From the NCBI RefSeq assembly GCF_002854065.1, contig NZ_CP024147.1: 64,000 nucleotides of DNA, one strand, 5' to 3'. This stretch comes from Escherichia coli (GTDB lineage Bacteria; Pseudomonadota; Gammaproteobacteria; Enterobacterales; Enterobacteriaceae). Positions 7,967 through 25,357 of this stretch are shown piece after piece. The stretch's first letter is position 1. Each line of letters opens with the position of its first letter. The notes below the pieces were generated by a model. That model had not been told where the DNA came from, ran no database searches, and saw only the letters and a list, made by a program, of their open reading frames with translations. The position numbers and the translations under genes are program-made.

Positions 7967-8065
7967 GCCTGATGCGCTACGCTTATCAGGCCTACATGGT
8001 CCTGCAATATATTGAATTGGCAAGATTTTTGTAGGCCGGATAAGGCGTTCACGCCGCATCCGGCA
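7967..8065 (+). repeat. REP/BIME elements in the entD-fepA spacer
   Basis: gcctgatgcgctacgcttatcaggcctac and gtaggccggataaggcgttcacgccgcatccggca are canonical E. coli REP palindromes. Confidence 0.75.
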
Positions 8066-8103
8066 TGAACGACGCGCACTTTGTCAACAATCTGACGTTA
8101 GCA

Positions 8104-10344
8104 TCAGAAGTGAGTGTTTACGCTCATATACCACGTACGTCCCGGCTCGTTATAGGTATACGCCCCGGCACCGGCGATATAGTTGGCCCCTGCCAAATCG
8201 CCCGTGGTCTGGGCATTACCCGCACGCCACAAACGTTTGTCGAACAGATTGTCCACGCCGCCGGTCAGACTGACATTCTTCGTCACATCCCACGTCGCGC
8301 TCAGCCCAACAATGCTGTAAGGACTAATTTCTTTGGTTTCCGGTCCAACCGCTGGCTGACCTTTATAGTTGTACTTCTTCGGCTGCTGCTTACCGTACCA
8401 GGTGAAGGTCGTTTGCATCGACAAATCTTCTCGTGCCTGCCAGCTCAGCGTTGAGTTCAACGTATACTCCGGGATGATCGACAAACGGTCGCCCGTGGTT
8501 TTGTTTTCACTCTTCAGCATATAAGTGATGTTATTAGTCCACATCACCGTTTCGCTAACCGGTACGTTTAACGATCCTTCCAGACCTTCAACCACCGCTT
8601 TCGGCACGTTATCCCACTGATAGAGATCGGTGCCGACTGCGTTTTGCCCTACAGCAACATAGCCTGCTTCAATCTTATTGCGATAATCGTTGCGGAACCA
8701 GGTCACACCCGCCAGCCAACCGTCGCGTTTGAACTCCAGACCAATCTCCTTGTTGATGCTGGTTTCTGCTTTCAGGTCATCGTTACCTTGCAGATAGCAG
8801 CCGCCCGCGCTGGCATAGCAGCCCTGGCCTTTACTATAGAGGATATAGTTAGGGTTAGTCTGGTACAGGCTCGGCGCTTTATAAGCACGGGCAATGCCCA
8901 TTTTGAGCGTGAAGTCATCGCCTAAACCTTGCGATATGTTCAGCGCCGGGCTCCAGTTATTGCCGACAATACTGTGATGATCGAAACGCAGCCCCGGCGT
9001 TACGATGGTGCTGTCAGTCAGCTCCATGTTGTTTTCGGCAAACAGCGAGAAAATTTCTGCTTTTGAATACGGGCTACGGTCGGTGGCACTCACGCCATCA
9101 ATAGCGCCACCGGTATTCGTTCCGGTCAGTGCCTGGGTGTTGGAACTTAAGTCCTTCATCCGTTGCTGATTCCACTCCGTACCCAGCGTCAGCGTTTGGT
9201 TAACGAGGAAATCAATCGGCAGGTTAACTTCGCTGTGCAGCATCACGTCATCAAGATCGATATCGACGAAATCCTGTGTCGCTTTTTCGTTAAATTTCCC
9301 TTCGGTGCCACCCGCCAGACCTTCCGGAATACGCGAGTTACGGGTGTGTTCATACTGCACCCAGTTGCTGGTGGTCACGCCGTTATCCCAGCCGCCGTTC
9401 CAGGTCAGCGAGTAGTTCTGGCGATACAGGCGGTTGGTTTCATCGCCATATTTCGAGCGAGTATAGGAGTCAGAGTTGGTGTTCTGGGTATCGCCCGCAT
9501 ACAGGTTACCCTGGCGGCTGTAGCCCGCTTCCAGTTCCAGCGATTGCAATGGTGCGAAGTCCCAGCGCACCACGCCGTTAATATCTTTATTGATCACCCC
9601 TTCGCGCCCGGCTGGTAACGTCGTGGCATACGTTCCGGCACGCGCGGACTGATGGCCCTGGTTGATATCCCACGCGTCAGCCTGAGTTTTGTCGAGGTTG
9701 CCATACAAGCGGAAGCTGAATTCGTCGCCCAGCGGACCGGTCAGGCTAAAGTTAGTGCGTTTGGTGGCACCTTCCTCTTTATGTTCTGGCGCATTGAAAT
9801 ATGCGTCCCAGGAGCCGTGCCACTCGCCGCTGCCTTTTTTGGTAATGATGTTAACCACGCCGCCCGCCGCGCCGTTGCCATAACGCGCAGCTGCCGGACC
9901 ACGCAGAACTTCAATACGTTCAATCATTTCAGGTGGCACCCAGGAGGTATCACCACGGGTATCGCGCTCGCCACGCCAGCCCTGGCGCACCGAGTTACGG
10001 CTGCTTACCGGCTTGCCGTCAATCAAAATCAGCGTGTTTTCCGGACCCATACCGCGAATATCAATCTGTCGGTTATTCCCTCGCTGACCACTGGTGGAGT
10101 TACCGGTCAGGTTAACGCCTGGCATGGTACGGATGATCTCCGACACATCGCGGGCAACGGGGTTTTTGCGGATTTCATCTGCGGTGATGGTCGAAACGCC
10201 AGGCGCCTGTAAGTTCTGCTCGGCGGCGGTAACGACAATGGTATCGTCATGTGAAACAGGAGTATCGGTCGGCTCTTGTGCCTGCGCTACCCCATAAATC
10301 CCCAGATTGACCAACAAGGCCATGGAATGAATCTTCTTGTTCAT
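8104..10344 (-). CDS. fepA: TonB-dependent ferric enterobactin outer-membrane receptor FepA
   Basis: Track ORF 8104..10404; recalled FepA (746 aa) starts MNKKIH with signal peptide ...GVAQA; C-terminal beta-barrel ending in F. Confidence 0.95.
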   Translation of the reverse strand: MNKKIHSMALLVNLGIYGVAQAQEPTDTPVSHDDTIVVTAAEQNLQAPGVSTITADEIRKNPVARDVSEIIRTMPGVNLTGNSTSGQRGNNRQIDIRGMGPENTLILIDGKPVSSRNSVRQGWRGERDTRGDTSWVPPEMIERIEVLRGPAAARYGNGAAGGVVNIITKKGSGEWHGSWDAYFNAPEHKEEGATKRTNFSLTGPLGDEFSFRLYGNLDKTQADAWDINQGHQSARAGTYATTLPAGREGVINKDINGVVRWDFAPLQSLELEAGYSRQGNLYAGDTQNTNSDSYTRSKYGDETNRLYRQNYSLTWNGGWDNGVTTSNWVQYEHTRNSRIPEGLAGGTEGKFNEKATQDFVDIDLDDVMLHSEVNLPIDFLVNQTLTLGTEWNQQRMKDLSSNTQALTGTNTGGAIDGVSATDRSPYSKAEIFSLFAENNMELTDSTIVTPGLRFDHHSIVGNNWSPALNISQGLGDDFTLKMGIARAYKAPSLYQTNPNYILYSKGQGCYASAGGCYLQGNDDLKAETSINKEIGLEFKRDGWLAGVTWFRNDYRNKIEAGYVAVGQNAVGTDLYQWDNVPKAVVEGLEGSLNVPVSETVMWTNNITYMLKSENKTTGDRLSIIPEYTLNSTLSWQAREDLSMQTTFTWYGKQQPKKYNYKGQPAVGPETKEISPYSIVGLSATWDVTKNVSLTGGVDNLFDKRLWRAGNAQTTGDLAGANYIAGAGAYTYNEPGRTWYMSVNTHF

Positions 10345-10512
10345 TGTTTTATTCCTGCATTTTTGCCACGAATTGCAACTGTCGGGCATGGTCGTCCTCA
10401 ACACGACGCATCCCGCTACCGCGAAAACCTTTGATCCTGAAAGACACGCAGTGCAGTTGGTTAATTAATGTCCGCGCTTCCCACGGCGCGCCATTACGCT
10501 ATTGCAAATGCA

Positions 10513-10539
10513 AATAGTTATCAATAATATTATCAATAT
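10513..10539 (+). promoter_or_regulatory. Fur box in the divergent fepA / fes promoter region
   Basis: aatagttatcaataatattatcaatat resembles the Fur consensus GATAATGATAATCATTATC; this region is a known iron-regulated bidirectional promoter. Confidence 0.65.
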
Positions 10540-10586
10540 ATTTCTGCAATCAATGAAAAATTGCACAGTAAACATGGGGTTATGGT

Positions 10587-11789
10587 GTGACGGCGTTAAA
10601 AGTAGGAAGTGAGAGCTGGTGGCAGTCGAAACATGGCCCGGAATGGCAGCGTCTGAATGACGAAATGTTTGAGGTCACTTTCTGGTGGCGTGATCCCCAA
10701 GGTTCTGAAGAATACTCGACGATAAAGCGCGTATGGGTCTACATCACTGGCGTGACTGATCACCATCAGAACAGCCAGCCCCAGTCGATGCAGCGAATTG
10801 CAGGTACTGATGTCTGGCAGTGGACGACACAACTCAATGCCAACTGGCGCGGCAGCTACTGCTTTATTCCCACCGAACGCGATGACATTTTTTCTGCACC
10901 ATCCCCCGATCGCCTCGAATTACGTGAAGGCTGGCGAAAACTATTACCCCAGGCAATAGCCGATCCGCTGAATCCACAAAGCTGGAAAGGCGGGCGAGGG
11001 CACGCTGTTTCTGCACTCGAAATGCCGCAAGCGCCTCTGCAACCGGGATGGGATTGTCCGCAAGCGCCAGAAATACCAGCCAAAGAAATTATCTGGAAAA
11101 GTGAACGGTTGAAAAATTCACGTCGTGTATGGATTTTTACCACCGGCGATGTAACAGCAGAAGAACGCCCGCTGGCAGTTTTGCTCGATGGCGAATTTTG
11201 GGCGCAAAGTATGCCCGTCTGGCCTGTGCTGACTTCGCTGACCCATCGTCAGCAACTTCCTCCCGCCGTGTATGTGTTGATCGACGCTATCGATACCACG
11301 CACCGCGCCCACGAACTGCCGTGTAATGCGGATTTCTGGCTCGCAGTACAGCAAGAGTTATTACCCCTGGTGAAAGCTATTGCCCCTTTTAGCGATCGTG
11401 CCGATCGCACCGTGGTTGCCGGGCAGAGTTTTGGTGGGCTTTCCGCGCTGTATGCCGGACTGCACTGGCCTGAACGCTTTGGCTGTGTATTAAGCCAGTC
11501 AGGATCGTACTGGTGGCCGCATCGGGGCGGGCAGCAAGAGGGCGTGTTACTTGAAAAGCTAAAAGCTGGTGAAGTTAGCGCCGAAGGTCTGCGCATTGTG
11601 CTGGAAGCGGGTATTCGCGAGCCGATGATCATGCGGGCCAATCAGGCGCTGTATACGCAATTACACCCTATAAAAGAATCCATTTTCTGGCGTCAGGTTG
11701 ACGGCGGACATGATGCGCTTTGTTGGCGCGGTGGCTTGATGCAGGGGCTAATCGACCTCTGGCAACCACTTTTCCATGACAGGAGTTGA
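10587..11789 (+). CDS. fes: Enterochelin (ferric enterobactin) esterase Fes
   Basis: 400-aa ORF MTALKVGSESWWQSKHGPEWQRL..., GTG start as given by the track; matches recalled Fes. Confidence 0.9.
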   Translation: MTALKVGSESWWQSKHGPEWQRLNDEMFEVTFWWRDPQGSEEYSTIKRVWVYITGVTDHHQNSQPQSMQRIAGTDVWQWTTQLNANWRGSYCFIPTERDDIFSAPSPDRLELREGWRKLLPQAIADPLNPQSWKGGRGHAVSALEMPQAPLQPGWDCPQAPEIPAKEIIWKSERLKNSRRVWIFTTGDVTAEERPLAVLLDGEFWAQSMPVWPVLTSLTHRQQLPPAVYVLIDAIDTTHRAHELPCNADFWLAVQQELLPLVKAIAPFSDRADRTVVAGQSFGGLSALYAGLHWPERFGCVLSQSGSYWWPHRGGQQEGVLLEKLKAGEVSAEGLRIVLEAGIREPMIMRANQALYTQLHPIKESIFWRQVDGGHDALCWRGGLMQGLIDLWQPLFHDRS

Positions 11790-11791
11790 AT

Positions 11792-12010
11792 ATGGCATTC
11801 AGTAATCCCTTCGATGATCCGCAGGGAGCGTTTTACATTTTGCGCAATGCGCAGGGGCAATTCAGTCTGTGGCCGCAACAATGCGCCTTACCGGCAGGCT
11901 GGGACATTGTGTGTCAGCCGCAGTCACAAGAGTCCTGCCAGCAGTGGCTTGAAGCCCACTGGCGTACTCTGACACCGGCGAATTTCACCCAGTTGCAGGA
12001 GGCACAATGA
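11792..12010 (+). CDS. ybdZ: MbtH-like protein YbdZ (enterobactin synthesis accessory protein)
   Basis: MAFSNPFDDPQGAFYILRNAQGQFSLWP... begins at the ATG at 11792 inside track ORF 11786..12010; 4-nt overlap with the entF start. Confidence 0.9.
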   Translation: MAFSNPFDDPQGAFYILRNAQGQFSLWPQQCALPAGWDIVCQPQSQESCQQWLEAHWRTLTPANFTQLQEAQ

Positions 12011-15000
12011 GCCAGCATTTACCTTTGGTCGCCGCACAGCCCGGCATCTGGATGGCAGAAAAACTGTCGGATTTACCCTCCGCCTGGAGCGTGGCGCATT
12101 ACGTTGACTTAACCGGAGAGGTTGATGCGCCATTACTGGCCCGCGCGGTGGTTGCCGGATTAGCGCAAGCAGATACGTTGCGGATGCGTTTTACGGAAGA
12201 TAACGGCGAAGTCTGGCAATGGGTCGATGATGCGCTGATATTCGAACTGCCAGAAATTATCGACCTGCGAACCAATATTGATCCGCACGGTACTGCGCAG
12301 GCATTAATGCAGGCGGATTTGCAACAAGATTTGCGCGTCGATAGCGGTAAACCACTGGTCTTCCATCAGCTGATACAGGTGGCGGATAACCGCTGGTACT
12401 GGTATCAGCGTTATCACCATTTGCTGGTCGATGGCTTCAGTTTCCCGGCCATTACCCGCCAGATCGCCAATATTTACTGTACATGGCTGCGTGGCGAACC
12501 AACGCCTGCTTCGCCGTTTACGCCTTTCGCTGATGTAGTGGAAGAGTACCGGCAATACCGCGAAAGCGAAGCCTGGCAGCGTGATGCGGCATTCTGGGTA
12601 GAACAGCGTCGCCAACTGCCACCGCCCGCGTCACTTTCTCCGGCACCTTTACCGGGGCGTAGCGCCTCGGCAGATATTCTGCGCCTGAAACTGGAATTTA
12701 CCGACGGGGAATTCCGCCAGCTGGCTATGCAATTTTCAGGTGAGCAGCGTACCGATTTAGCTCTTGCGCTGGCGGCTTTGTGGCTGGGGCGATTGTGCAA
12801 TCGCATGGACTACGCTGCCGGATTTATCTTTATGCGTCGACTGGGGTCGGCGGCGCTGACGGCTACCGGACCTGTGCTCAACGTTTTGCCGTTGGGTATT
12901 CACATTGCGGCACAAGAAACGCTGCCGGAACTGGCAACCCGACTGGCGGCTCAACTGAAAAAAATGCGTCGCCATCAACGTTACGATGCCGAACAAATTG
13001 TCCGTGACAGCGGGCGAGCGGCAGGTGATGAACCGCTGTTTGGTCCGGTACTCAATATCAAGGTATTTGATTACCAACTGGATATTCCTGATGTTGAGGC
13101 GCAAACCCATACCCTGGCAACCGGGCCGGTTAATGACCTTGAACTGGCCCTGTTCCCGGATGAACACGGTGATTTGAGTATTGAGATCCTCGCCAATAAA
13201 CAGCGTTACGCTGAGCCAACGTTAATCCAGCATGCTGAACGCCTGAAAATGCTGATCGCCCAATTCGCCGCGGATCCGGCGCTGTTGTGCGGCGATGTCG
13301 ATATTATGCTGCCAGGTGAGTATGCGCAGCTGGCGCAGATCAACGCCACTCAGGTTGAGATTCCAGAAACCACGCTTAGCGCGCTGGTGGCAGAACAAGC
13401 GGCAAAAACACCGGATGCTCCGGCGCTGGCAGATGCGCGTTACCAGTTCAGCTATCGGGAAATGCGCGAGCAGGTGGTGGCGCTGGCGAATCTGCTGCGT
13501 GAGCACGGCGTTAAACCAGGGGACAGCGTGGCGGTGGCATTACCGCGCTCGGTCTTTTTGACCCTGGCGCTACATGCGATTGTTGAAGCCGGTGCGGCCT
13601 GGTTACCGCTGGATACGGGGTATCCGGACGATCGCCTGAAAATGATGCTGGAAGATGCGCGTCCGTCGCTGTTAATCACCACCGACGATCAACTGCCGCG
13701 CTTTGCCGATGTTCCAGATTTAACCAACCTTTGCTATAACGCCCCGCTTACACCGCAGGGCAGTGCGCCGCTGCAATTTTCACAACCGCATCACACGGCT
13801 TATATCATCTTTACCTCTGGCTCCACCGGCAGGCCGAAAGGGGTAATGGTCGGGCAGACGGCTATCGTCAACCGCCTGCTGTGGATGCAAAACCACTACC
13901 CGCTTACAGGCGAAGATGTCGTTGCCCAAAAAACGCCGTGCAGTTTTGATGTCTCGGTGTGGGAGTTTTTCTGGCCGTTTATTGCCGGGGCTAAACTGGT
14001 GATGGCTGAACCGGAAGCGCACCGCGACCCGCTCGCTATGCAGCAATTCTTTGCCGAATATGGCGTAACGACCACGCACTTTGTGCCGTCGATGCTGGCG
14101 GCATTTGTTGCATCGCTGACGCCCGAAACCGCTCGCCAGAGTTGCGCGACGTTGAAACAGGTTTTCTGTAGTGGTGAGGCCTTACCGGCTGATTTATGCC
14201 GCGAATGGCAACAGTTAACCAGCGTGCCGTTGCATAATCTGTATGGTCCAACGGAAGCGGCGGTGGATGTGAGCTGGTATCCGGCTTTTGGCGAGGAACT
14301 GGCACAGGTGCGCGGCAGCAGTGTGCCGATTGGTTATCCGGTGTGGAATACGGGCCTGCGCATTCTCGATGCGATGATGCATCCGGTGCCGCCGGGTGTG
14401 GCGGGAGATCTCTATCTCACCGGTATTCAACTGGCGCAGGGGTATCTTGGACGACCCGATCTGACCGCCAGCCGTTTTATTGCCGATCCTTTTGCCCCAG
14501 GTGAACGGATGTATCGTACCGGAGACGTTGCCCGCTGGCTGGATAACGGCGCGGTGGAGTACCTCGGGCGCAGTGACGATCAGCTAAAAATTCGCGGGCA
14601 GCGTATCGAACTGGGCGAAATCGATCGCGTGATGCAGGCGCTGCCGGATGTCGAACAAGCCGTTACCCACGCCTGTGTGATTAACCAGGCGGCAGCCACC
14701 GGTGGTGATGCGCGTCAGTTGGTGGGCTATCTGGTGTCGCAATCAGGTCTGCCGTTGGATACCAGCGCATTACAGGCACAGCTTCGCGAAACATTGCCGC
14801 CGCATATGGTGCCGGTCGTTCTGCTGCAACTGCCGCAGTTGCCACTTAGCGCCAACGGCAAGCTGGATCGCAAAGCCTTACCGTTGCCTGAACTTAAGGC
14901 ACAAACGCCGGGGCGTGCGCCGAAAGCGGGCAGTGAAACGATTATCGCTGCGGCATTCGCGTCGTTGCTGGGTTGTGACGTGCAGGATGCCGATGCTGAT

Positions 15001-15888
15001 TTCTTCGCGCTTGGCGGTCATTCGCTACTGGCAATGAAACTGGCAGCGCAGTTAAGTCGACAGTTTGCTCGTCAGGTAACGCCGGGGCAGGTGATGGTCG
15101 CGTCAACTGTCGCCAAACTGGCAACGATTATTGATGGTGAAGAGGACAGCGCCCGGCGCATGGGATTCGAAACCATTCTGCCGTTGCGTGAAGGTAATGG
15201 CCCGACGCTGTTTTGTTTCCACCCGGCATCCGGTTTTGCCTGGCAGTTCAGCGTGCTCTCGCGTTATCTCGATCCACTATGGTCGATTATCGGCATTCAG
15301 TCGCCGCGCCCTCATGGCCCCATGCAGACAGCGACGAACCTGGATGAAGTCTGCGAAGCGCATCTGGCAACGTTACTTGAACAACAACCGCACGGCCCTT
15401 ATTACCTGCTGGGGTATTCCCTTGGCGGTACGCTGGCGCAGGGCATTGCGGCGCGACTACGTGCCCGTGGCGAACAGGTGGCATTTCTTGGCTTGCTGGA
15501 TACCTGGCCGCCAGAAACGCAAAACTGGCAGGAAAAAGAAGCTAATGGTCTGGACCCGGAAGTGCTGGCGGAGATTAACCGCGAGCGCGAGGCCTTCCTG
15601 GCGGCACAGCAGGGAAGTACTTCAACGGAGTTGTTTACCACCATTGAAGGCAACTACGCTGATGCTGTGCGCCTGCTGACGACTGCTCATAGCGTACCGT
15701 TTGACGGTAAAGCGACGTTGTTTGTTGCTGAACGCACGCTTCAGGGAGGTATGAGTCCTGAACGCGCCTGGTCGCCGTGGATTGCGGAGCTGGATATCTA
15801 TCGTCAGGATTGTGCGCATGTGGATATTATCTCTCCAGGGGCATTTGAAAAAATTGGGCCGATTATTCGCGCAACGCTAAACAGATAA
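12007..15888 (+). CDS. entF: Enterobactin non-ribosomal peptide synthetase EntF (condensation, adenylation, carrier and thioesterase domains)
   Basis: 1293-aa ORF with NRPS adenylation motifs (FTSGSTGRPKGV, YRTGD) and a GGHSL carrier-domain serine motif. Confidence 0.95.
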   Translation: MSQHLPLVAAQPGIWMAEKLSDLPSAWSVAHYVDLTGEVDAPLLARAVVAGLAQADTLRMRFTEDNGEVWQWVDDALIFELPEIIDLRTNIDPHGTAQALMQADLQQDLRVDSGKPLVFHQLIQVADNRWYWYQRYHHLLVDGFSFPAITRQIANIYCTWLRGEPTPASPFTPFADVVEEYRQYRESEAWQRDAAFWVEQRRQLPPPASLSPAPLPGRSASADILRLKLEFTDGEFRQLAMQFSGEQRTDLALALAALWLGRLCNRMDYAAGFIFMRRLGSAALTATGPVLNVLPLGIHIAAQETLPELATRLAAQLKKMRRHQRYDAEQIVRDSGRAAGDEPLFGPVLNIKVFDYQLDIPDVEAQTHTLATGPVNDLELALFPDEHGDLSIEILANKQRYAEPTLIQHAERLKMLIAQFAADPALLCGDVDIMLPGEYAQLAQINATQVEIPETTLSALVAEQAAKTPDAPALADARYQFSYREMREQVVALANLLREHGVKPGDSVAVALPRSVFLTLALHAIVEAGAAWLPLDTGYPDDRLKMMLEDARPSLLITTDDQLPRFADVPDLTNLCYNAPLTPQGSAPLQFSQPHHTAYIIFTSGSTGRPKGVMVGQTAIVNRLLWMQNHYPLTGEDVVAQKTPCSFDVSVWEFFWPFIAGAKLVMAEPEAHRDPLAMQQFFAEYGVTTTHFVPSMLAAFVASLTPETARQSCATLKQVFCSGEALPADLCREWQQLTSVPLHNLYGPTEAAVDVSWYPAFGEELAQVRGSSVPIGYPVWNTGLRILDAMMHPVPPGVAGDLYLTGIQLAQGYLGRPDLTASRFIADPFAPGERMYRTGDVARWLDNGAVEYLGRSDDQLKIRGQRIELGEIDRVMQALPDVEQAVTHACVINQAAATGGDARQLVGYLVSQSGLPLDTSALQAQLRETLPPHMVPVVLLQLPQLPLSANGKLDRKALPLPELKAQTPGRAPKAGSETIIAAAFASLLGCDVQDADADFFALGGHSLLAMKLAAQLSRQFARQVTPGQVMVASTVAKLATIIDGEEDSARRMGFETILPLREGNGPTLFCFHPASGFAWQFSVLSRYLDPLWSIIGIQSPRPHGPMQTATNLDEVCEAHLATLLEQQPHGPYYLLGYSLGGTLAQGIAARLRARGEQVAFLGLLDTWPPETQNWQEKEANGLDPEVLAEINREREAFLAAQQGSTSTELFTTIEGNYADAVRLLTTAHSVPFDGKATLFVAERTLQGGMSPERAWSPWIAELDIYRQDCAHVDIISPGAFEKIGPIIRATLNR

Positions 15889-15903
15889 ATTAACATTATC
15901 TAT

Positions 15904-15936
15904 AAACCCATAATTGCAGGAAATAATTATGGGTTT
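15904..15936 (+). terminator. Perfect 12-bp AT-rich inverted repeat (aaacccataatt-9 nt-aattatgggttt) just after entF; terminator or protein-binding palindrome
   Basis: Read directly; followed by a T-rich tract (atcatttatttaatttat). Confidence 0.4.
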
Positions 15937-16103
15937 ATCATTTATTTAATTTATAAGGTTGCTGGTTATTTTTCTTAAATAGAGTGAATGTTGCATTCAG
16001 TGGAATGAATTTACAAACTTCAGCTTCGGATAATTCTCACCAACTGGTAAAGTGAGCGCCGTGGAGATTTCCCCCTATTGGACTCATTTTCAGGTTATAC
16101 CCC

Positions 16104-17237
16104 ATGTCATCACTGAATATTAAACAGGGAAGTGACGCTCATTTTCCCGATTATCCTCTGGCGTCGCCCAGTAATAATGAAATTGATTTACTTAATCTAA
16201 TCTCAGTTTTATGGCGGGCCAAAAAAACGGTCATGGCGGTCGTTTTTGCGTTTGCCTGTGCAGTCTTGCTGATCTCTTTCATCCTGCCGCAAAAATGGAC
16301 CAGCGCGGCGGTTGTCACGCCTCCAGAACCTGTTCAGTGGCAAGAGTTGGAGAAAACATTCACTAAGCTTCGTGTGCTGGATCTGGATATCAAAATTGAT
16401 CGTACAGAAGCATTTAACCTGTTTATCAAGAAGTTTCAGTCGGTTAGCTTGCTGGAAGAGTACCTGCGTTCATCACCTTATGTGATGGACCAATTAAAAG
16501 AGGCGAAAATCGACGAACTGGATTTGCATCGCGCAATTGTCGCATTGAGCGAAAAAATGAAAGCGGTTGATGACAATGCCAGTAAGAAAAAAGATGAACC
16601 GTCACTGTATACCTCCTGGACGCTAAGTTTTACCGCGCCAACCAGTGAAGAGGCGCAGACCGTTTTGAGCGGGTATATCGATTATATCTCTGCGTTGGTG
16701 GTGAAAGAGTCGATAGAAAACGTCCGTAATAAACTGGAGATCAAAACCCAGTTTGAAAAAGAAAAACTGGCTCAGGACCGCATTAAAATGAAAAATCAAC
16801 TTGATGCAAACATTCAGCGCCTCAATTATTCACTCGACATTGCCAACGCGGCAGGAATTAAAAAGCCCGTTTACAGTAATGGTCAGGCCGTTAAAGATGA
16901 CCCCGATTTCTCTATTTCTCTCGGCGCAGACGGTATTGAACGCAAACTGGAAATTGAAAAAGCGGTCACTGACGTTGCGGAACTGAACGGTGAATTACGT
17001 AATCGTCAGTATCTTGTTGAGCAGTTAACAAAAGCAAATATCAACGATGTGAATTTTACGCCGTTTAAATATCAGTTAAGCCCGTCATTGCCAGTGAAAA
17101 AAGACGGTCCGGGTAAGGCGATTATTGTGATCCTTTCCGCGCTGATCGGCGGGATGGTGGCTTGTGGTAGCGTGTTATTGCGCTATGCGATGGCATCCAG
17201 AAAACAGGATGCCATGATGGCAGACCACTTAGTTTAA
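16104..17237 (+). CDS. fepE: Wzz-family polysaccharide chain-length regulator FepE
   Basis: 377-aa ORF with N- and C-terminal transmembrane segments; matches recalled FepE. Confidence 0.9.
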   Translation: MSSLNIKQGSDAHFPDYPLASPSNNEIDLLNLISVLWRAKKTVMAVVFAFACAVLLISFILPQKWTSAAVVTPPEPVQWQELEKTFTKLRVLDLDIKIDRTEAFNLFIKKFQSVSLLEEYLRSSPYVMDQLKEAKIDELDLHRAIVALSEKMKAVDDNASKKKDEPSLYTSWTLSFTAPTSEEAQTVLSGYIDYISALVVKESIENVRNKLEIKTQFEKEKLAQDRIKMKNQLDANIQRLNYSLDIANAAGIKKPVYSNGQAVKDDPDFSISLGADGIERKLEIEKAVTDVAELNGELRNRQYLVEQLTKANINDVNFTPFKYQLSPSLPVKKDGPGKAIIVILSALIGGMVACGSVLLRYAMASRKQDAMMADHLV

Positions 17238-18049
17238 CTATTTGCGGTTGAAGGTGCCGTTCGTCCGAGCGGCACCACGAGCGGCGTTCCGGCTACCGGA
17301 TCGTCAATGATCATGCAGCGGAGACCATAAATGCGCTCAATCAGTTCAGCAGTGACAATCTCCTTCGGCGCTCCCTGAGCAACAATTTTCCCTTCTCGCA
17401 ATGCAATCAAATGGCTGGCGTAACGACAGGCCTGATTAAGATCGTGCAGCACCGCCGCCAGGGTATAGCCTTTCTCGCGGTTCAGTTCGCTTAACAGTTC
17501 CAGCAAATCAATCTGATGACTGATATCCAGCCAGGTCGTGGGTTCGTCGAGCAGCATAATTGCCGTTTCCTGGGCCAGCACCATCGCGATCCACGCTCGC
17601 TGGCGTTGCCCACCGGAAAGGGTATCCACGCTTTGATCTGCAAGATGAGTTATTCCCGTGGCCTGCATCGCTTTCGTTACCGCCTCTTCATCTTCTTTGC
17701 GCCAACGGGTAAACAGCGGTTGATGCGGATAACGCCCACGCGCCACCAGCTCCTGCACGGTGATATCGCCCGGCGTGGTAGCATTTTGCGCCAACAGACC
17801 AATCCGGCGTGCAACTTCTTTACTGGCGTAATGTTGAATGTGCTCGCCATCCAGCCAGACATGCCCGTGAGTAGGCGTCATCAGGCGGCTTAAGGTACGC
17901 AGCAACGTGGATTTACCGCAGCCATTTGGCCCGATAATTGCCGTGAAGTGACCATCAGGTATTTCTACAGTCAGATTTTCCGCAACGGTATATTTGCCAT
18001 ATCCCAGGGTTAACTGTTCGCCGCGCAAACGGGCTACTGATTCGGTCAT
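17234..18049 (-). CDS. fepC: Ferric enterobactin ABC transporter ATP-binding protein FepC
   Basis: Track ORF 17234..18190; recalled FepC (271 aa) starts MTESVARLRGEQ; Walker A GPNGCGKST and signature LSGGQRQR present. Confidence 0.9.
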   Translation of the reverse strand: MTESVARLRGEQLTLGYGKYTVAENLTVEIPDGHFTAIIGPNGCGKSTLLRTLSRLMTPTHGHVWLDGEHIQHYASKEVARRIGLLAQNATTPGDITVQELVARGRYPHQPLFTRWRKEDEEAVTKAMQATGITHLADQSVDTLSGGQRQRAWIAMVLAQETAIMLLDEPTTWLDISHQIDLLELLSELNREKGYTLAAVLHDLNQACRYASHLIALREGKIVAQGAPKEIVTAELIERIYGLRCMIIDDPVAGTPLVVPLGRTAPSTANS

Positions 18050-19038
18050 TTTTTGCGAGACTCCTGAATTAACAAGACGATAAGGTAAATACCGCCGAGG
18101 CTGACGGTAACGACGCCAACCGGAAGTTGATACGGCATAAACAGTTGTTGGGCGCAGAGATCGGCCGCCAGCAGTAACAACGCCCCGCACAGCGCCGCCT
18201 GGGTTAGCCCCCAGCGAGCGGTGCCGCTAATGCGTCGGGCAATGTGCGGCGCGACTAAAGCAATAAAGGAAATCGGCCCGGCAAGCGCTGTTGCCGCAGC
18301 GGTAAGCACCACTGCAACCAGCATCATTAACAGACGCGAACGTTCGACGCTGACGCCCAGCGCACACGCGGTATCATCGCCCATTTCCAGCAAGCGCATC
18401 CGGCGTACCAGTAAGGCGGCGGCAATTAGCATCAATATAATGATGGGTGCGGAAGGCGAGGTTTTTGCCCACGTCAGGCCGTTGAGCGATCCGGCATTCC
18501 ACAAACCTGCTGTTAGCGCCGTTTCTAAAGACGCTTTCAGCAACAGCCAGGTATTAAAGGCCACCAGCATGGCGCGAACGCCGATACCGATAATAATCAA
18601 CCGAAAGGTGTCGATACCGTTACGCCAGGCGAGCAGCCAGACCAACAGCGAAGTGATAATGCCGCCCACCATTGCTGCCAGCGCGATAGCCGTCAGGTCC
18701 TGACCAAACAGCACCATCGCCACCAGCACGCCGCTCCACGCCCCGGTGTTAAAACCCATTACGTCAGGGCTGCCGAGCGGGTTACGCATCAGCGACTGAA
18801 AAATCGCGCCACTGACGCCCAGTGCTGCGCCAATCAACAGCGCCATCAGCACGCGTGGTAAACGCCATTCGGTGACCACCATCGTCATACTGCGCGGCGC
18901 ATCGCCCATCAGCGCGGCGAATACCTGCGAGGTTTCCAGCGTGACGGCACCGCTGCGTAATCCCCAGATACCTGCAACCACACAGGCGGAAATCAGCAGC
19001 AAACAGGTGATGAGTAATCGGCGAGAGACGTAAATCAT
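18046..19038 (-). CDS. fepG: Ferric enterobactin ABC transporter permease FepG
   Basis: 330-aa polytopic membrane ORF; 4-nt overlap with fepC. Confidence 0.9.
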   Translation of the reverse strand: MIYVSRRLLITCLLLISACVVAGIWGLRSGAVTLETSQVFAALMGDAPRSMTMVVTEWRLPRVLMALLIGAALGVSGAIFQSLMRNPLGSPDVMGFNTGAWSGVLVAMVLFGQDLTAIALAAMVGGIITSLLVWLLAWRNGIDTFRLIIIGIGVRAMLVAFNTWLLLKASLETALTAGLWNAGSLNGLTWAKTSPSAPIIILMLIAAALLVRRMRLLEMGDDTACALGVSVERSRLLMMLVAVVLTAAATALAGPISFIALVAPHIARRISGTARWGLTQAALCGALLLLAADLCAQQLFMPYQLPVGVVTVSLGGIYLIVLLIQESRKK

Positions 19039-20039
19039 GCACCACCTCGCGTTTTACGTCGCACGAGGAAGATCAGCACCGGTGCACCAATAAACGCACT
19101 GACCACAGAAACGCGCAGTTCACCGGGCACAATCACCCGCCCGATGATATCGGCAAACAGCAGCAGGGCAGGGGTAGCAAGTAGCGTGACGGGCAGCGAC
19201 CAGCGATGATCGGCACCCACCAGCCAACGCGCCATATGCGGCATCATCAGGCCAATAAAGGCAATCGGGCCAACTACCGCCGTCGCACTACCACAAAGCA
19301 CGGTAATCGCCAGCAGACCAATCAACTGTGTGCGCGCCACGCGACTGCCCAGCGCCGTCGCGGTGTCACTGCCGAGGCTCAAACTGTTCAGCGCGCGGCT
19401 CAGTAATAGCGCGGTTGCTCCGGCGATCAGCACCGGGATCAGCACCACTTTTAAGGTATGTAGATTGCGAATATCCAGCGAACCGGCTTGCCAGAAACGC
19501 AGTTGATCGTAGACGTCAGGATTAAGCAGGGCGATGCCGCTGGTCAGCCCTTCCAGCACCGCCGCCAGCGCCACGCCCGCCAGGGTTAAACGCACCGGAC
19601 TTAACTGCCCGCCGCCCTGGCTGCCGGTAAAGGCAACAATCAATGAGGCCACCAGCGCCCCGGCGAAGGCCATCGCCAGTTGTTCCTGTGCGGAAGAGTA
19701 ACCAAACAGCGCCGCACCCAGCACAATGGCAAAGCTGGCTCCGGCGTTCACGCCAAGCAAGCCGGGGTCGGCAAGTGGGTTTCGGGTGAGGGTTTGCATT
19801 AACGCCCCGGCAAGGCCAAGCGCGCCGCCTGCCAGTAAACCGGCAAGGGTACGCGGCAGCCGCGCGTCGAGCACGATGGTGCAGTCGGCGCTCTGGCAGG
19901 TGCCGGAGAAGGCCTCCAGCACTACGGAAGCGGGGAGTGATTTTGCCCCAATGAGCAGACTTAATGCCGTCGCGATAATCAGTAATAACAGCAATCCGGG
20001 CACGGCAATGGCGCGTGTCACGGCAACAGAACCAGACAT
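19035..20039 (-). CDS. fepD: Ferric enterobactin ABC transporter permease FepD
   Basis: Track ORF 19035..20051; recalled FepD (334 aa) starts MSGSVAV, 4 codons in; the start at 20051 remains possible. Confidence 0.85.
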   Translation of the reverse strand: MSGSVAVTRAIAVPGLLLLLIIATALSLLIGAKSLPASVVLEAFSGTCQSADCTIVLDARLPRTLAGLLAGGALGLAGALMQTLTRNPLADPGLLGVNAGASFAIVLGAALFGYSSAQEQLAMAFAGALVASLIVAFTGSQGGGQLSPVRLTLAGVALAAVLEGLTSGIALLNPDVYDQLRFWQAGSLDIRNLHTLKVVLIPVLIAGATALLLSRALNSLSLGSDTATALGSRVARTQLIGLLAITVLCGSATAVVGPIAFIGLMMPHMARWLVGADHRWSLPVTLLATPALLLFADIIGRVIVPGELRVSVVSAFIGAPVLIFLVRRKTRGGA

Positions 20040-20051
20040 ACGAACTTCCAT

Positions 20052-20076
20052 GATAATGAAATTAATTATCGTTATC
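20052..20076 (+). promoter_or_regulatory. Fur box in the divergent fepD / entS promoter region
   Basis: gataatgaaattaattatcgttatc closely resembles the Fur consensus. Confidence 0.65.
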
Positions 20077-20149
20077 GATCTTATTTGGATATGTTAGCAT
20101 GTGCAGCCTAAGAATAGGTATTTAAAATATTTGATGGCAAGGCATTGTA

Positions 20150-21400
20150 ATGAATAAACAATCCTGGCTGCTTAACCTCAGCCTGTTGAAAACGCACCCG
20201 GCGTTTCGCGCAGTATTCCTCGCTCGTTTCATCTCTATTGTTTCTCTGGGTTTGCTCGGCGTCGCGGTGCCGGTGCAGATCCAGATGATGACACATTCCA
20301 CCTGGCAGGTGGGGCTTTCGGTGACGCTGACCGGCGGCGCGATGTTTGTTGGCCTGATGGTCGGCGGTGTGCTGGCGGATCGCTATGAGCGCAAAAAAGT
20401 GATTTTGCTGGCGCGCGGCATCTGTGGCATTGGCTTCATTGGACTGTGCCTGAACGCGCTGCTGCCGGAGCCGTCATTGCTGGCAATCTATTTACTTGGT
20501 TTATGGGATGGTTTTTTCGCATCGCTTGGCGTTACGGCGCTATTGGCGGCGACACCTGCACTGGTAGGGCGTGAAAACTTAATGCAGGCCGGGGCGATCA
20601 CCATGTTGACCGTGCGTCTGGGGTCGGTGATTTCGCCCATGATTGGCGGTTTACTGCTGGCGACTGGCGGTGTGGCCTGGAACTACGGACTGGCGGCGGC
20701 GGGCACGTTTATTACCTTGCTACCGTTGTTAAGCCTTCCGGCACTGCCACCGCCACCGCAGCCGCGTGAGCATCCGTTGAAATCATTACTGGCAGGATTT
20801 CGTTTTCTGCTCGCCAGCCCGCTGGTGGGAGGGATTGCGCTGCTGGGTGGTTTATTGACGATGGCGAGTGCGGTGCGGGTACTGTATCCGGCGCTGGCTG
20901 ACAACTGGCAGATGTCAGCGGCACAGATTGGTTTTCTCTACGCGGCGATCCCGCTCGGCGCGGCTATTGGTGCGTTAACCAGCGGGAAGCTGGCACATAG
21001 TGCGCGACCAGGGTTATTGATGCTGCTCTCCACGCTGGGATCGTTCCTCGCCATTGGTCTGTTTGGCCTGATGCCGATGTGGATTTTAGGCGTGGTTTGT
21101 CTGGCGCTGTTCGGCTGGCTGAGCGCGGTTAGTTCGTTGCTGCAATATACAATGCTGCAAACGCAAACTCCGGAAGCGATGTTAGGGCGGATTAACGGTT
21201 TGTGGACGGCGCAGAACGTGACGGGCGATGCCATAGGCGCAGCGCTGCTGGGCGGTTTGGGAGCGATGATGACACCGGTTGCTTCCGCAAGCGCGAGCGG
21301 TTTTGGTTTGTTGATTATCGGCGTGTTGTTATTGCTGGTGCTGGTGGAGTTGCGACGTTTTCGCCAGACGCCGCCGCAGGTGACAGCGTCTGACGGTTAA
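20150..21400 (+). CDS. entS: Enterobactin exporter EntS (MFS transporter)
   Basis: 416-aa 12-TM ORF matching recalled EntS (YbdA). Confidence 0.9.
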
Positions 21401-21403
21401 TGC

Positions 21404-22360
21404 TTAAAACAGCGCCTTAAGTCGTTCCAGCACTTGCATGGCGCTGTAGTAATCCAGACGGAACGTCTCGGTTCCCAACGCATAAACCTGCTTGTTTTGT
21501 ACTGCAGGCAGGTGCGCGAGCAGCGGATTAGCATAAATAGCATCGGCATCTTTCTGATCACCGGCGAACAGGAATAGTGACTCGCCATTTAACCCTGCAG
21601 CCAGATTTTCCCCACCAAGCTGAATGATGTCATGGCGTTTACCCTGACTTTGGCTGGCATTTAACCCTGCGGGTAACTTCGCCAGCGTAAAGCCGAGTTG
21701 TTCCAGCATCTGCCCTTGTGCTGATTCCGGCGTCCAGAGATTGGCACTGTGTGCAGCGGCAGTATAGACAATGGCAGTGACCGGCTGCGGCGGTAATTTG
21801 ATTTGCTCTTTCGCCGCCGCCAGTTGCTTATCAAACTGCGCAATCCGCTCTGCCGCTTGTTTCTCATGCCCGGTAATTTCGCCAAGTTGCGTTAACAGCG
21901 CCTGCCAGCTTTTGTCGTCGTAATTGATGATTAATGTCGGAGCGATGGTGGAAAGCTGATCGTACAGCGCCAGCGCCGAATCACCGCCGGTTGCGCTAAT
22001 TAAAATCAGATCCGGCATTTGCGCGGCAACGGCTTCTGCACTCGGTTCGCCGATATAGAGCCGTTGCAGTTTGCGTTCTTTCGCCACCTTGCTCCACTGG
22101 CGTAAAAAGCCCTGGTCATCCGCGACGCGGTTATTTGGCGTGGTCGCGCCGCTGGCGATCACCGGAGCATCAATCGCCAGCAGTGAGCCGGTCAGGGTGA
22201 CGCTGGTGGAAACAATACGCTGCGGCTGGCTTTCCAGGGTATGAATGCCACGGCTGTCAGTAATCTGACGCGGCCAGTCGGCGGCCTGAACTGCGGCTAT
22301 TCCTGAAAGCAAAAGTCCTGTTAATAGAAGGGCATTGCGGTAGAGCGGGGCGAGTCTCAC
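21404..22360 (-). CDS. fepB: Periplasmic ferric enterobactin-binding protein FepB
   Basis: 318-aa ORF with signal peptide ...AAVQA; matches recalled FepB. Confidence 0.9.
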
Positions 22361-22458
22361 AAATCAGCTTCCTGTTATTAATGAAGTTAATGCTTCTCAT
22401 TTTCATTGTAACCACAACCAAATGCAACCCCGAGTTGCAGATTGCGTTACCTCAAGAG

Positions 22459-22487
22459 TTGACATAGTGCGCGTTTGCTTTTAGGTT
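22459..22487 (+). promoter_or_regulatory. Candidate sigma70 promoter for entC (ttgaca, 17-nt spacer, taggtt)
   Basis: Consensus -35 and a plausible -10 at correct spacing, read directly; the Fur box lies immediately downstream. Confidence 0.45.
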
Positions 22488-22496
22488 AGCGACCGA

Positions 22497-22522
22497 AAAT
22501 ATAAATGATAATCATTATTAAA
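22497..22522 (+). promoter_or_regulatory. Fur box in the divergent fepB / entC promoter region
   Basis: ataaatgataatcattattaaag is a near-perfect match to GATAATGATAATCATTATC. Confidence 0.75.
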
Positions 22523-22548
22523 GCCTTTATCATTTTGTGGAGGATGAT

Positions 22549-23724
22549 ATGGATACGTCACTGGCTGAGGAAGTACAGCAGACCATGGCAACACTTGCGC
22601 CCAATCGCTTTTTCTTTATGTCGCCGTACCGCAGTTTTACGACGTCAGGATGTTTCGCCCGCTTCGATGAACCGGCTGTGAACGGGGATTCGCCTGACAG
22701 TCCCTTCCAGCAAAAACTCGCCGCGCTGTTTGCCGATGCCAAAGCGCAGGGCATCAAAAATCCGGTGATGGTCGGGGCGATTCCCTTCGATCCACGTCAG
22801 CCTTCGTCGCTGTATATTCCCGAATCCTGGCAGTCGTTCTCCCGTCAGGAAAAACAAACTTCCGCACGCCGTTTCACCCGCAGCCAGTTGCTGAATGTGG
22901 TGGAACGCCAGGCAATTCCGGAACAAACCACGTTTGAACAGATGGTTGCCCGCGCCGCCGCACTTACCGCCACGCCGCAGGTCGACAAAGTGGTGTTGTC
23001 ACGGTTGATTGATATCACCACTGACGCCGCCATTGATAGTGGCGTATTGCTGGAACGGTTGATTGCGCAAAACCCGGTTAGTTACAACTTCCATGTGCCG
23101 TTGGCAGATGGTGGCGTCCTGCTGGGGGCCAGCCCGGAACTGCTGCTACGTAAAGACGGCGAGCGTTTTAGCTCCATTCCGTTAGCCGGTTCCGCACGTC
23201 GTCAGCCGGATGAAGTGCTCGATCGCGAAGCGGGTAATCGTCTGCTGGCGTCAGAAAAAGATCGCCATGAACATGAACTGGTGACTCAGGCGATGAAAGA
23301 GGTACTGCGCGAACGCAGTAGTGAGTTACACGTTCCTTCCTCTCCACAATTGATTACCACGCCGACGCTGTGGCATCTCGCAACTCCCTTTGAAGGTAAA
23401 GCGAATTCGCAAGAAAACGCACTGACTCTGGCCTGTCTGCTGCATCCGACCCCCGCGCTGAGCGGTTTCCCGCATCAGGCCGCGACCCAGGTTATTGCTG
23501 AACTGGAGCCGTTCGACCGCGAACTGTTTGGCGGCATTGTGGGTTGGTGTGACAGCGAAGGTAACGGCGAATGGGTGGTGACCATCCGCTGCGCGAAGCT
23601 GCGGGAAAATCAGGTGCGTCTGTTTGCCGGAGCGGGGATTGTGCCTGCGTCGTCACCGTTGGGTGAGTGGCGCGAAACAGGCGTCAAACTTTCTACCATG
23701 TTGAACGTTTTTGGATTGCATTAA
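22549..23724 (+). CDS. entC: Isochorismate synthase EntC
   Basis: Track ORF 22537..23724; recalled EntC (391 aa) starts MDTSLAEE at the ATG at 22549. Confidence 0.9.
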
Positions 23725-23733
23725 GGAGCGATG

Positions 23734-25344
23734 ATGAGCATTCCATTTACCCGCTGGCCAGAAGAGTTTGCCCGTCGCTATCGGGAAAAAGGTTACTGGC
23801 AGGATTTGCCGCTGACCGACATTCTGACTCGCCACGCTGCGAGTGACAGCATCGCGGTTATCGACGGCGAGCGGCAGTTGAGTTATCGGGAGCTGAATCA
23901 GGCGGCGGATAACCTCGCGTGTAGTTTGCGCCGTCAGGGAATTAAACCTGGTGAAACCGCGCTGGTACAACTTGGTAACGTCGCTGAACTTTATATTACC
24001 TTTTTCGCGCTGCTGAAACTGGGCGTTGCGCCGGTGCTGGCGCTGTTCAGCCATCAGCGTAGTGAACTGAACGCCTATGCCAGCCAGATTGAACCGGCGT
24101 TACTGATTGCCGATCGCCAACATGCGCTGTTTAGCGGGGATGATTTCCTCAACACATTTGTTGCAGAGCATTCTTCTATTCGCGTGGTGCAACTGCACAA
24201 CGACAGCGGTGAGCATAACTTGCAGGATGCGATTAACCATCCGGCAGACGGTTTTACTGCCACGCCGTCACCTGCTGATGAAGTGGCCTATTTCCAGCTT
24301 TCCGGCGGCACCACCGGCACACCGAAACTGATCCCGCGCACTCATAACGACTACTACTACAGCGTGCGTCGTAGCGTCGAGATTTGTCAGTTTACGCAAC
24401 AGACGCGCTACCTGTGCGCGATCCCGGCGGCTCATAACTACGCCATGAGTTCGCCAGGATCGCTGGGCGTCTTTCTTGCCGGAGGAACGGTTGTTCTGGC
24501 GGCCGATCCCAGCGCCACGCTCTGTTTCCCATTGATTGAAAAACATCAGATTAACGTTACCGCGCTGGTGCCGCCGGCAGTCAGCCTGTGGTTGCAGGCG
24601 CTGACCGAAGGCGAAAGCCGGGCGCAGCTTGCCTCGCTGAAACTGTTACAGGTCGGCGGCGCACGTCTTTCAGCCACGCTTGCGGCCCGTATTCCCGCTG
24701 AGATTGGCTGCCAGTTGCAGCAGGTGTTTGGCATGGCGGAAGGGCTGGTGAACTACACCCGTCTTGATGATAGCGAGGAGAAAATTATCCATACCCAGGG
24801 TTACCCAATGTGTCCGGACGATGAAGTGTGGGTTGCTGATGCCGAAGGAAATCCACTGCCGCAAGGGGAAGTTGGACGCCTGATGACGCGCGGGCCGTAC
24901 ACCTTCCGCGGTTATTACAAAAGCCCGCAGCACAATGCCAGTGCCTTTGATGCCAACGGTTTTTACTGTTCCGGCGATCTGATCTCTATTGATCCAGAGG
25001 GTTACATCACCGTGCAGGGGCGCGAGAAAGATCAGATCAACCGTGGCGGCGAGAAGATCGCTGCCGAAGAGATCGAAAACCTGTTGCTGCGCCATCCGGC
25101 GGTGATCTACGCCGCACTGGTCAGTATGGAAGATGAGCTGATGGGCGAAAAAAGCTGTGCTTATCTGGTGGTAAAAGAGCCGCTGCGCGCGGTGCAGGTG
25201 CGTCGTTTCCTGCGTGAACAGGGTATTGCCGAATTTAAATTACCGGATCGCGTGGAGTGTGTGGATTCACTTCCGCTGACGGCGGTCGGGAAAGTCGATA
25301 AAAAACAATTACGTCAGTGGCTGGCGTCACGCGCATCAGCCTGA
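23734..25344 (+). CDS. entE: 2,3-dihydroxybenzoate-AMP ligase EntE
   Basis: Track ORF 23731..25344; recalled EntE (536 aa) starts MSIPFTRW; adenylation motifs present. Confidence 0.9.
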
Positions 25345-25357
25345 AGGAGAGAACACG

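Follow-up and report, generated by a model that had tools for sequence, protein, structure and literature searches.

INTRODUCTION

The closest described system is the enterobactin regulon of Escherichia coli K-12, in which Fur operators have been located by DNase I footprinting. The primary footprinting and start-site papers are reportedly Brickman 1990, Hunt 1994, Christoffersen 2001 and Lavrrar 2002. The gene cluster and its Fur boxes are already known and are textbook E. coli biology; the primary work on the regulon came from the McIntosh laboratory and is cited in PMC2189734 and PMC4911079. In nine E. coli strains the Fur core regulon includes the ent and fep genes, and fepABCD is reported to be under Fur control in each of the nine, among them Sakai (PMC10164565). 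Clustering of Fur sites at 3 or 6 bp was described by Chen et al. (PMC2189734). Other E. coli operators that have been footprinted or gel-shifted (fhuA, cir, fecI, fecA, sodA, fhuF, ryhB, exbB and others) carry the same 9-1-9 motif and also have overlapping sites at 3- or 6-bp spacing (PMC2189734). Sites of the ent cluster serve divergent promoter pairs, whereas most other Fur operators serve one promoter, and this is no difference in kind.

Here we compare a 64-kb stretch of E. coli DNA (the window) with these systems. A first-pass annotation made from the sequence had described a complete, iron-regulated core enterobactin cluster with Fur-like boxes at the fepA/fes, fepD/entS and fepB/entC junctions. 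Gene integrity, matrix ranks and identity to footprinted K-12 DNA all agree with this description and support it.

RESULTS

The window is from the E. coli chromosome. Records NZ_CP182139.1 and NZ_CM128593.1 match it at 100.0% over 22 kb, the former with 6 SNPs in 28 kb, and identity of at least 99% over 22 kb was reached by only 11 of 5472 records. Gene names follow the PGAP annotation of the near-identical NZ_CP182139.1, in which 0 of 16 genes carry a pseudogene flag. All 16 ent/fep/fes genes are intact between 7309 and 27377, have no internal stops and share order, strands and lengths with K-12, and their identities to K-12 are 95.7–98.9% in nucleotides and 95.9–100% in amino acids. Coding divergence from K-12 is thus 1–4%. 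Outside the genes, K-12 differs by an IS186B beside entD, where the window has two hokE/sok copies and no IS, and by a 186-bp repeat in the fepB leader (see below).

From left to right, the minus strand encodes entD (7309–7929; phosphopantetheinyl transferase, 206 aa, 96.9% nucleotide identity to K-12) and fepA (8104–10344; outer-membrane ferric enterobactin receptor, 746 aa). On the plus strand follow fes (10587–11789; enterobactin esterase with a GTG start, 400 aa), ybdZ (11792–12010; annotated as enterobactin biosynthesis protein YbdZ, 72 aa), entF (12007–15888; non-ribosomal peptide synthetase, 1293 aa) and fepE, also called wzz(fepE) (16104–17237; 377 aa). A terminator-like hairpin with a 15-bp stem (15902–15938) precedes fepE. 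In the entF–fepE spacer, the scan for a separate fepE Fur box with the matrix described below gave nothing above 8.2 bits. The fepDGC operon, which encodes the permeases and ATPase of an ABC importer, lies on the minus strand (17234–20039; fepC 17234–18049, fepG 18046–19038, fepD 19035–20039), and entS on the plus strand (20150–21400; enterobactin exporter, 416 aa). The minus-strand fepB (21404–22360; periplasmic binding protein with a GTG start, 318 aa) is followed by the plus-strand entCEBAH operon (22549–27377; entC 22549–23724, entE 23734–25344, entB 25358–26215, entA 26215–26961, entH 26964–27377). These assignments come from PGAP and from comparison with K-12.

Both the biosynthetic set (entC, entE, entB, entA, entF and entD, with accessory ybdZ and entH) and the transport and release set (fepA, fepB, fepD, fepG, fepC, entS and fes) are complete, and the three divergent junctions have the canonical gene order and orientation of K-12 MG1655. 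Judged from the intact genes alone, this strain would be able to produce and take up enterobactin. The completeness and canonical order given by the first-pass annotation were thus confirmed. Its span, 10345–22548, however, reaches only from the start of fepA to that of entC; entD–fepA (7309–10344) and entCEBAH (22549–27377) lie outside it.

For detection of Fur sites, a 19-bp weight matrix was trained on 17 K-12 sites at 16 loci, all outside the ent cluster, which were rebuilt from the K-12 coordinates in Tables 3 and 4 of Chen et al. 2007 (PMC2189734). The consensus of these sites (n = 17) is AATGATAATCATTATCATT, a 9-1-9 inverted repeat, and their leave-one-out scores have a median of 21.3 bits and a range of 8.8–27.8 bits. 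The classical 19-mer GATAATGATAATCATTATC, with up to 3 mismatches, matched the whole window only at the fepD/entS box (GATAATGAAATTAATTATC, 20052–20070; 0.01 matches expected); this criterion was judged too blunt, and the matrix was used instead.

The three best matrix sites in 64 kb are 22504–22522 (24.84 bits), 20055–20073 (18.63 bits) and 10507–10525 (17.64 bits), one at each junction at which a Fur-like box had been recognized by eye. Ranks 4 and 5 (22498–22516 and 20061–20079) fall in the same control regions. The best ent sites, at 17.6–24.8 bits, lie within the leave-one-out range of known sites. Five sites of at least 15 bits were observed, all in the three regions, against 0.23 expected from 300 dinucleotide-preserving shuffles of the window, so the sites stand far above background. 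The best score in these shuffles was 20.1 bits and the 95th percentile of their maxima was 17.64 bits; the best entC site outscores all 300.

Within the ent control regions, overlapping sites are clustered at 3- or 6-bp spacing. In the fepA/fes operator (10495–10542), which is the exact equivalent of the 48-bp K-12 footprint, sites start at 10507, 10513 and 10519 (17.6, 5.1 and 9.8 bits; 6-bp spacing). The fepD/entS operator (20021–20089; equivalent to the 69-bp K-12 footprint) has sites starting at 20049, 20055 and 20061 (6.4, 18.6 and 15.2 bits; 6-bp spacing), and the entC operator (22495–22543; equivalent to the 49-bp K-12 footprint) has sites starting at 22498, 22501, 22504 and 22516 (15.9, 7.7, 24.8 and 9.3 bits). 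The by-eye boxes agree with these clusters to within a few bases: 10513–10539 against a matrix cluster of 10507–10537, 20052–20076 within a cluster of 20049–20079, and 22497–22522 against a cluster of 22498–22534, each box lying inside its footprint. The entC box had been called near-perfect, which its 15-base uninterrupted consensus core and its matrix score support, but in the classical 19-mer register it matches at 15 of 19 positions.

DNA under the fepA–fes, fepD–entS and entC footprints is base-for-base the same in the window and in K-12, as judged with K-12 footprint coordinates taken second-hand from Table 3 of Chen et al. 2007 (PMC2189734). Moreover, the site centres 10516, 20064 and 22513, when converted, coincide with the strongest sites of Chen et al., 611889, 621437 and 624072 (PMC2189734). 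Fur binding at these three operators is hence supported indirectly, through identity to footprinted K-12 DNA. Over the complete intergenic regions, the window differs from K-12 at 1 of 242 positions in fepA–fes and at 0 of 110 in fepD–entS. The footprint sequences are unchanged in 4951, 4980 and 5293 of 5426 complete E. coli genomes (91–98%), and in O157:H7 Sakai the three control regions are 0–3 bases from those of the window.

In the fepB–entC region each promoter has its own operator, the two being separated by about 110 bp; the first-pass annotation had listed the entC box and missed the weaker fepB box (22383–22410). The fepB operator has sites at 22389–22407 (13.5 bits) and 22383–22401 (9.3 bits), and it overlaps a putative fepB −10 hexamer, TACAAT (minus strand, 22410–22405), read from the sequence. 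For this short allele, fepB transcription is predicted to begin near 22396–22398, which would leave a leader of about 35–40 nt. On score alone the box is marginal: 0.34 sites at 13.5 bits are expected by chance in 64 kb, and a site within dsbG equals it. Of local shuffles of the fepB region, a fraction of 0.004 reached the observed score. The operator is assigned on its position, the K-12 footprint and conservation. Bases 9–31 of the K-12 fepB footprint correspond to 22388–22410, so that 23 of 31 footprinted bases are common to the window.

The remaining bases reflect a length difference, the fepB–entC intergenic region being 188 bp in the window versus 374 bp in K-12. In K-12 a GC-rich palindromic repeat of 186 bp is inserted 31 bp ahead of the fepB start codon; the window is without this insert. 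The last 8 bp of this insert form one edge of the footprinted fepB operator, and a site built partly from it scores 18.98 bits in K-12, whereas its counterpart in the window scores 9.29 bits.

Positions of the boxes are also kept outside E. coli. In E. albertii, cryptic Escherichia, Citrobacter and Siccibacter the entC, fepB and fepD/entS boxes retain their relative positions: the entC box (17.8–24.8 bits) is 107–116 bp from the fepB box, and the fepD/entS box (18.6–22 bits) is about 2.3–2.9 kb away in every locus that reaches that far. An identical fepB 19-mer is found in E. albertii, E. whittamii, many Citrobacter species and Siccibacter. In contrast to the boxes, the intergenic DNA between them diverges. 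With 22.0 bits, the Citrobacter fepD/entS box, AATGATAGTAATTATCGTT, approaches the consensus more closely than its E. coli counterpart (18.6 bits).

Candidate promoters lie around the boxes. The minus strand has a sigma-70-like promoter, TTGATT-18-TATTAT (10553–10524), that overlaps the fepA/fes operator, and the literature places the transcription starts of fepA and fes 19 bp apart (PMC4469952). A putative entC promoter was read from the sequence on the plus strand (22459–22487), with TTGACA at 22459–22464, a 17-nt spacer and TAGGTT at 22482–22487; both hexamers are kept across Escherichia, Citrobacter and Siccibacter. Sigma-70 consensus matches overlap the fepA/fes, fepD and entC boxes; with 11 matches in the window versus 9.3 in shuffles there is no enrichment, and this simple scan is cited for position only.

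DISCUSSION

We read the region as a complete chromosomal E. coli cluster for enterobactin synthesis, export, uptake and hydrolysis under Fur control, with a probability of about 95%. Gene integrity, sites above background, identity of the footprinted DNA and its conservation both inside E. coli and between genera were observed directly, and no result among the tests run contradicts this reading. A normally regulated, functional-looking enterobactin system would be expected in almost every E. coli, and its presence here may serve mainly as quality control.

Fur occupancy, promoter positions and iron-dependent expression in this strain are drawn from the literature or from inference, and the following scheme is phrased accordingly. 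Transcription would start at three control regions with divergent promoters, fepA/fes, fepDGC/entS and fepB/entCEBAH. With separate ones for fepB and entC, these regions hold four operators, made of 19-bp Fur sites that overlap. In iron-rich cells, Fe2+-Fur dimers would fill the site clusters, which probably cover the −10 and start-site regions or sit just downstream of them, and transcription would consequently be blocked in both directions. When iron is scarce, Fur would leave the DNA and all six transcription units would be derepressed together.

It could be argued that, for all its apparent completeness, the cluster of this strain is impaired in function or under different control. The lineage is uncommon, as the 11 of 5472 close records indicate, the fepB leader lacks the 186 bp of K-12 with the accompanying fall in site score, and all experiments were done on the K-12 fepB control region, which differs from that of the window. 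However, all ORFs are intact and their proteins are close to those of K-12. Among 5426 complete E. coli genomes, 2755 have the insert and 2628 are without it, and E. albertii, cryptic Escherichia, Citrobacter species and Siccibacter have a short fepB leader as the window does. A lineage-specific deletion of the 186 bp was considered and rejected on these grounds, and because the short allele is carried by so many genomes and by outgroup genera, the short fepB–entC form appears to be the normal, ancestral one. O157:H7 Sakai also carries the short allele, yet fepABCD is reported as Fur-regulated there (PMC10164565). We therefore regard an impaired or differently regulated cluster as very improbable.

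The idea that AT-rich intergenic DNA produced the Fur-like matches by chance, and that they have no regulatory role, is effectively refuted: the three intergenic regions are indeed AT-rich (31–43% G+C) like the Fur motif itself, and weak matches of 5–14 bits are spread over the window, some of them within dsbG and rnk, but shuffles of the individual regions reached the observed maxima in only 0/2000, 6/2000 (0.003) and 0/2000 cases, a 35% G+C background predicts 0.00004 to 0.006 such sites per 540 bp, the DNA is the same as that protected by Fur in K-12, and the boxes are kept across genera while flanking intergenic DNA diverges. Two of the weak matches were considered as real Fur sites and rejected: the site in dsbG (35753–35771; 13.8 bits) and that in rnk (41432–41450; 11.4 bits) are both intragenic and compatible with chance, 0.68 sites of at least 13 bits being expected.

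Within the reading of an intact, Fur-controlled enterobactin cluster, the fepB control region is the only non-textbook element. We raise as a tentative and rather doubtful idea that the long and short fepB alleles show measurable differences in Fur repression, in mRNA stability or in fepB translation. If true, a mobile repeat would have given rise to a natural and common polymorphism in the regulation of iron uptake. The K-12 fepB operator and long leader of the literature represent the insertion-bearing allele, found in about half of sequenced E. coli. Thus, K-12-based models of fepB regulation may not transfer unchanged to O157:H7 or to the lineage of the window, and the same caution extends to at least some phylogroup B2 strains, such as IHE3034. 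On the leader polymorphism itself, our literature search found only a listing of the 'HPG1' G-quadruplex/hairpin motif between K-12 fepB and entC (PMC5100583), a motif that the 186-bp repeat contains. In K-12, the insert gives the fepB mRNA leader an extra hairpin of about −91 kcal/mol.

Content and integrity of the enterobactin cluster

By megablast, the 8000-30000 segment of the window was present in 5,425 of 5,426 complete E. coli genomes, and NZ_CM128593.1 and NZ_CP182139.1 were 100.0% identical to it. Since only 11/5472 matching records had ≥99% identity over this segment, most having 95-99%, the strain belongs to a lineage with few sampled genomes, of which CUWW06 (wastewater, Thailand) and strain 100416 are closest to it. 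Over 28 kb, NZ_CP182139.1 and the window have 6 differences, and the PGAP annotation of this record, expressed in window coordinates, gave the genes as entD (7309-7929, minus strand), fepA (8104-10344, minus), fes (10587-11789), ybdZ (11792-12010), entF (12007-15888), fepE (16104-17237), fepC, fepG and fepD (17234-20039, minus), entS (20150-21400), fepB (21404-22360, minus) and entC, entE, entB, entA and entH (22549-27377). This annotation has no pseudogene flags on ent/fep/fes genes. K-12 MG1655 has the identical gene set in identical order, and every cluster gene translated from the window had its K-12 length and no internal stop, with identities to K-12 of 95.7-98.9% for nucleotides and 95.9-100% for amino acids. 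Therefore, the cluster is complete and canonical, as the first-pass annotation had stated. The span that it gave, 10345-22548, takes in only the part from the fepA start codon to the entC start codon; the whole cluster occupies 7309-27377.

Fur operators of the cluster

Architecture of the ent/fep Fur operators is stated outright in the literature (PMC4911079), and transcription starts of fepA and fes lie 19 bp apart (PMC4469952). In the established model, Fe2+-Fur dimers would polymerise along the overlapping sites between each two divergent promoters and keep RNA polymerase out, and release of Fur in low iron would derepress all transcription units together. 

To avoid circularity, the Fur weight matrix was trained solely on sites that do not belong to the ent cluster. 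Positions in K-12 of Fur sites known from footprints or gel shifts, and of the strongest site of each predicted cluster, are given by Chen et al. 2007 (PMC2189734). From 16 K-12 loci, with sites placed by published distances to start codons, we took 15 site-centred 19-mers (fhuA, gpmA, fiu, sufA, yoeA, cir, mntH, exbB, bfd, ryhB, sodA, fecI, fecA, fhuF and yqjH), together with the best 19-mer from each of the fur and tonB footprints. The symmetrised consensus was AATGATAATCATTATCATT, and training sites in leave-one-out scored a median of 21.3 bits (range 8.8-27.8). Scores of the ent sites fall inside this range, and thus these sites score like real Fur sites.

Failure of a Fur matrix scan to exceed background had been named as the refuting result for the boxes proposed at fepA/fes, fepD/entS and fepB/entC. 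In the scan they instead took the first three ranks of the window, at 22504-22522 (entC, 24.84 bits), 20055-20073 (fepD/entS, 18.63 bits) and 10507-10525 (fepA/fes, 17.64 bits), followed by 22498-22516 (entC, 15.94 bits), 20061-20079 (fepD/entS, 15.21 bits), 35753-35771 inside dsbG (13.81 bits) and 22389-22407 on the fepB side (13.47 bits). Against 300 dinucleotide-preserving shuffles of the 64-kb window, five sites of ≥15 bits were observed versus a mean of 0.23, and three of ≥17 bits versus 0.077; the best score among all shuffles was 20.1 bits. Exact score distributions gave 0.0001, 0.016 and 0.030 sites expected per 64 kb at the three best scores, and when AT-rich intergenic regions were shuffled singly the observed maximum was reached in 0/2000, 6/2000 and 0/2000 trials. 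The classical consensus GATAATGATAATCATTATC with ≤3 mismatches matched solely at 20052-20070 (0.01 expected); the entC box agrees with this register at 15/19 positions, yet has 15 consecutive consensus bases and the top matrix score. Intragenic matches in dsbG and in rnk (41432-41450, 11.4 bits) are consistent with chance, because 0.68 sites of ≥13 bits are expected per shuffle.

K-12 DNase I footprints are listed in NC_000913.2 coordinates in Table 3 of Chen et al. (PMC2189734) as 611868-611915 (fepA-fes), 621394-621462 (fepD-entS), 623939-623969 (fepB) and 624054-624102 (entC). With these coordinates converted to the K-12 locus, exact matches to the fepA-fes, fepD-entS and entC footprint sequences were found at 10495-10542, 20021-20089 and 22495-22543, and all three proposed boxes lie within these operators. 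Best-site centres at 10516, 20064 and 22513 coincide with Chen's strongest-site coordinates 611889, 621437 and 624072. Matrix sites of each operator overlap with offsets of 3 or 6 bp, the pattern reported by Chen et al. (PMC2189734).

The 48-bp fepA-fes, 69-bp fepD-entS and 49-bp entC footprint sequences occur without any change in 4,951, 4,980 and 5,293 of 5,426 E. coli genomes, respectively. Moreover, control regions differ from K-12 much less than genes do: the entD-fepA (7930-8103), fepA-fes (10345-10586) and fepD-entS (20040-20149) spacers have 0/174, 1/242 and 0/110 differences, whereas flanking genes diverge by 1-4%; the entF-fepE spacer (15889-16103) has 16/215. Low spacer divergence is consistent with purifying selection on control regions. 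In other genera, 107-116 bp separate the fepB box from the entC box, which scores 17.8-24.8 bits, and every retrieved locus that is long enough also has a fepD/entS box, at a distance of 2.3-2.9 kb and with a score of 18.6-22 bits. Judged from sequence, this strain thus has the DNA determinants of Fur control, and they are both significant and conserved, which supports the reading of an intact, iron-regulated core cluster; the observation is confirmed, and it is known biology.

The fepB operator and its insertion polymorphism

At fepB/entC the first-pass annotation identified the entC box and missed the fepB operator; the two are footprinted separately. The fepB operator maps to 22383-22410 and comprises overlapping sites at 22389-22407 (13.5 bits) and 22383-22401 (9.3 bits), which we read as covering a putative fepB -10 element, TACAAT (22410-22405, minus strand). 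The score taken by itself makes the box a marginal one (0.34 expected per 64 kb), but its local shuffle fraction is 0.004, it corresponds to a K-12 footprint, and its exact 19-mer is kept across genera. The putative entC promoter (-35 TTGACA, 22459-22464; -10 TAGGTT, 22482-22487) has both hexamers conserved in other genera. Between its -35 and the fepB operator lies a terminator-like hairpin (22423-22445, minus; TGCAAC-CCCGA-GTTGCA with a T-rich tail), which in Citrobacter is conserved only in part.

Between fepB and entC there are 188 bp in the window and 374 bp in K-12; the 186 extra bases of K-12 (16542-16727 of the K-12 locus used) are inserted 31 bp ahead of the start codon of fepB. In the window this point is 22390/22391, within the operator and leader of fepB. 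Flanked by a TAA repeat, the K-12 insert is a near-perfect palindrome that is GC-rich; as a transcribed part of the fepB leader, it has a folding energy of about -91 kcal/mol. Within it is the 'HPG1' G-quadruplex/hairpin motif, which is listed between fepB and entC in K-12 (PMC5100583). The K-12 fepB footprint begins with 8 bases, TCCATCAA, that form the end of the insert, and in K-12 this end completes a site, ATCAATAATGCTTCTCATT, of 18.98 bits; its window counterpart, GAAGTTAATGCTTCTCATT, scores 9.29 bits.

This insertion polymorphism, which affects both operator and leader of fepB, is widespread in E. coli, and it is the sole item here with potential for novelty. The insert is present in 2,755 of 5,426 E. 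coli genomes, and the empty junction of the window in 2,628. IHE3034 has the empty junction, as does Sakai (O157:H7), whose 188 bp differ from the window by 3 SNPs. One Sakai variant, A for G at 22408, converts the putative -10 element to consensus TATAAT on the fepB strand and may be a promoter-strength variant. The short form also occurs in E. albertii, a cryptic Escherichia lineage, about 20 Citrobacter genomes and Siccibacter; in E. whittamii, this site holds the element in a shortened version. Because outgroup genera have the short form, it is most likely ancestral. Gao et al. 2023 found fepABCD under Fur control in all nine strains, Sakai included (PMC10164565), and thus the short allele, which Sakai carries, still comes under Fur control.

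At 29667-29815, in the cstA-ybdD spacer, a partial copy of the palindromic repeat in opposite orientation (29667-29779; 78% identity over 116 nt) is followed by REP-like GCCGGATAA...CATCCGGC.

Neighbouring elements

A hairpin with a 15-bp stem and a T-rich run behind it (15902-15938, plus) adjoins the stop codon of entF and suggests that transcription terminates, at least in part, ahead of fepE, and the matrix scan of the window gave no separate fepE Fur site above 8.2 bits. Just downstream of fepA, in the entD-fepA spacer, which is the same as in K-12, an ES036 (CssrF) sRNA match was found at 7988-8029 (minus; 40.5 bits versus a gathering score of 37.6, Rfam). Immediately upstream of entD is a tandem pair of hok/sok-type toxin-antitoxin copies (6386-7187), with hokE coding sequences at 6532-6684 and 7035-7187 and Rfam sok matches at 6386-6540 and 6888-7043; K-12 has IS186B at this position, whereas the window is without IS186.
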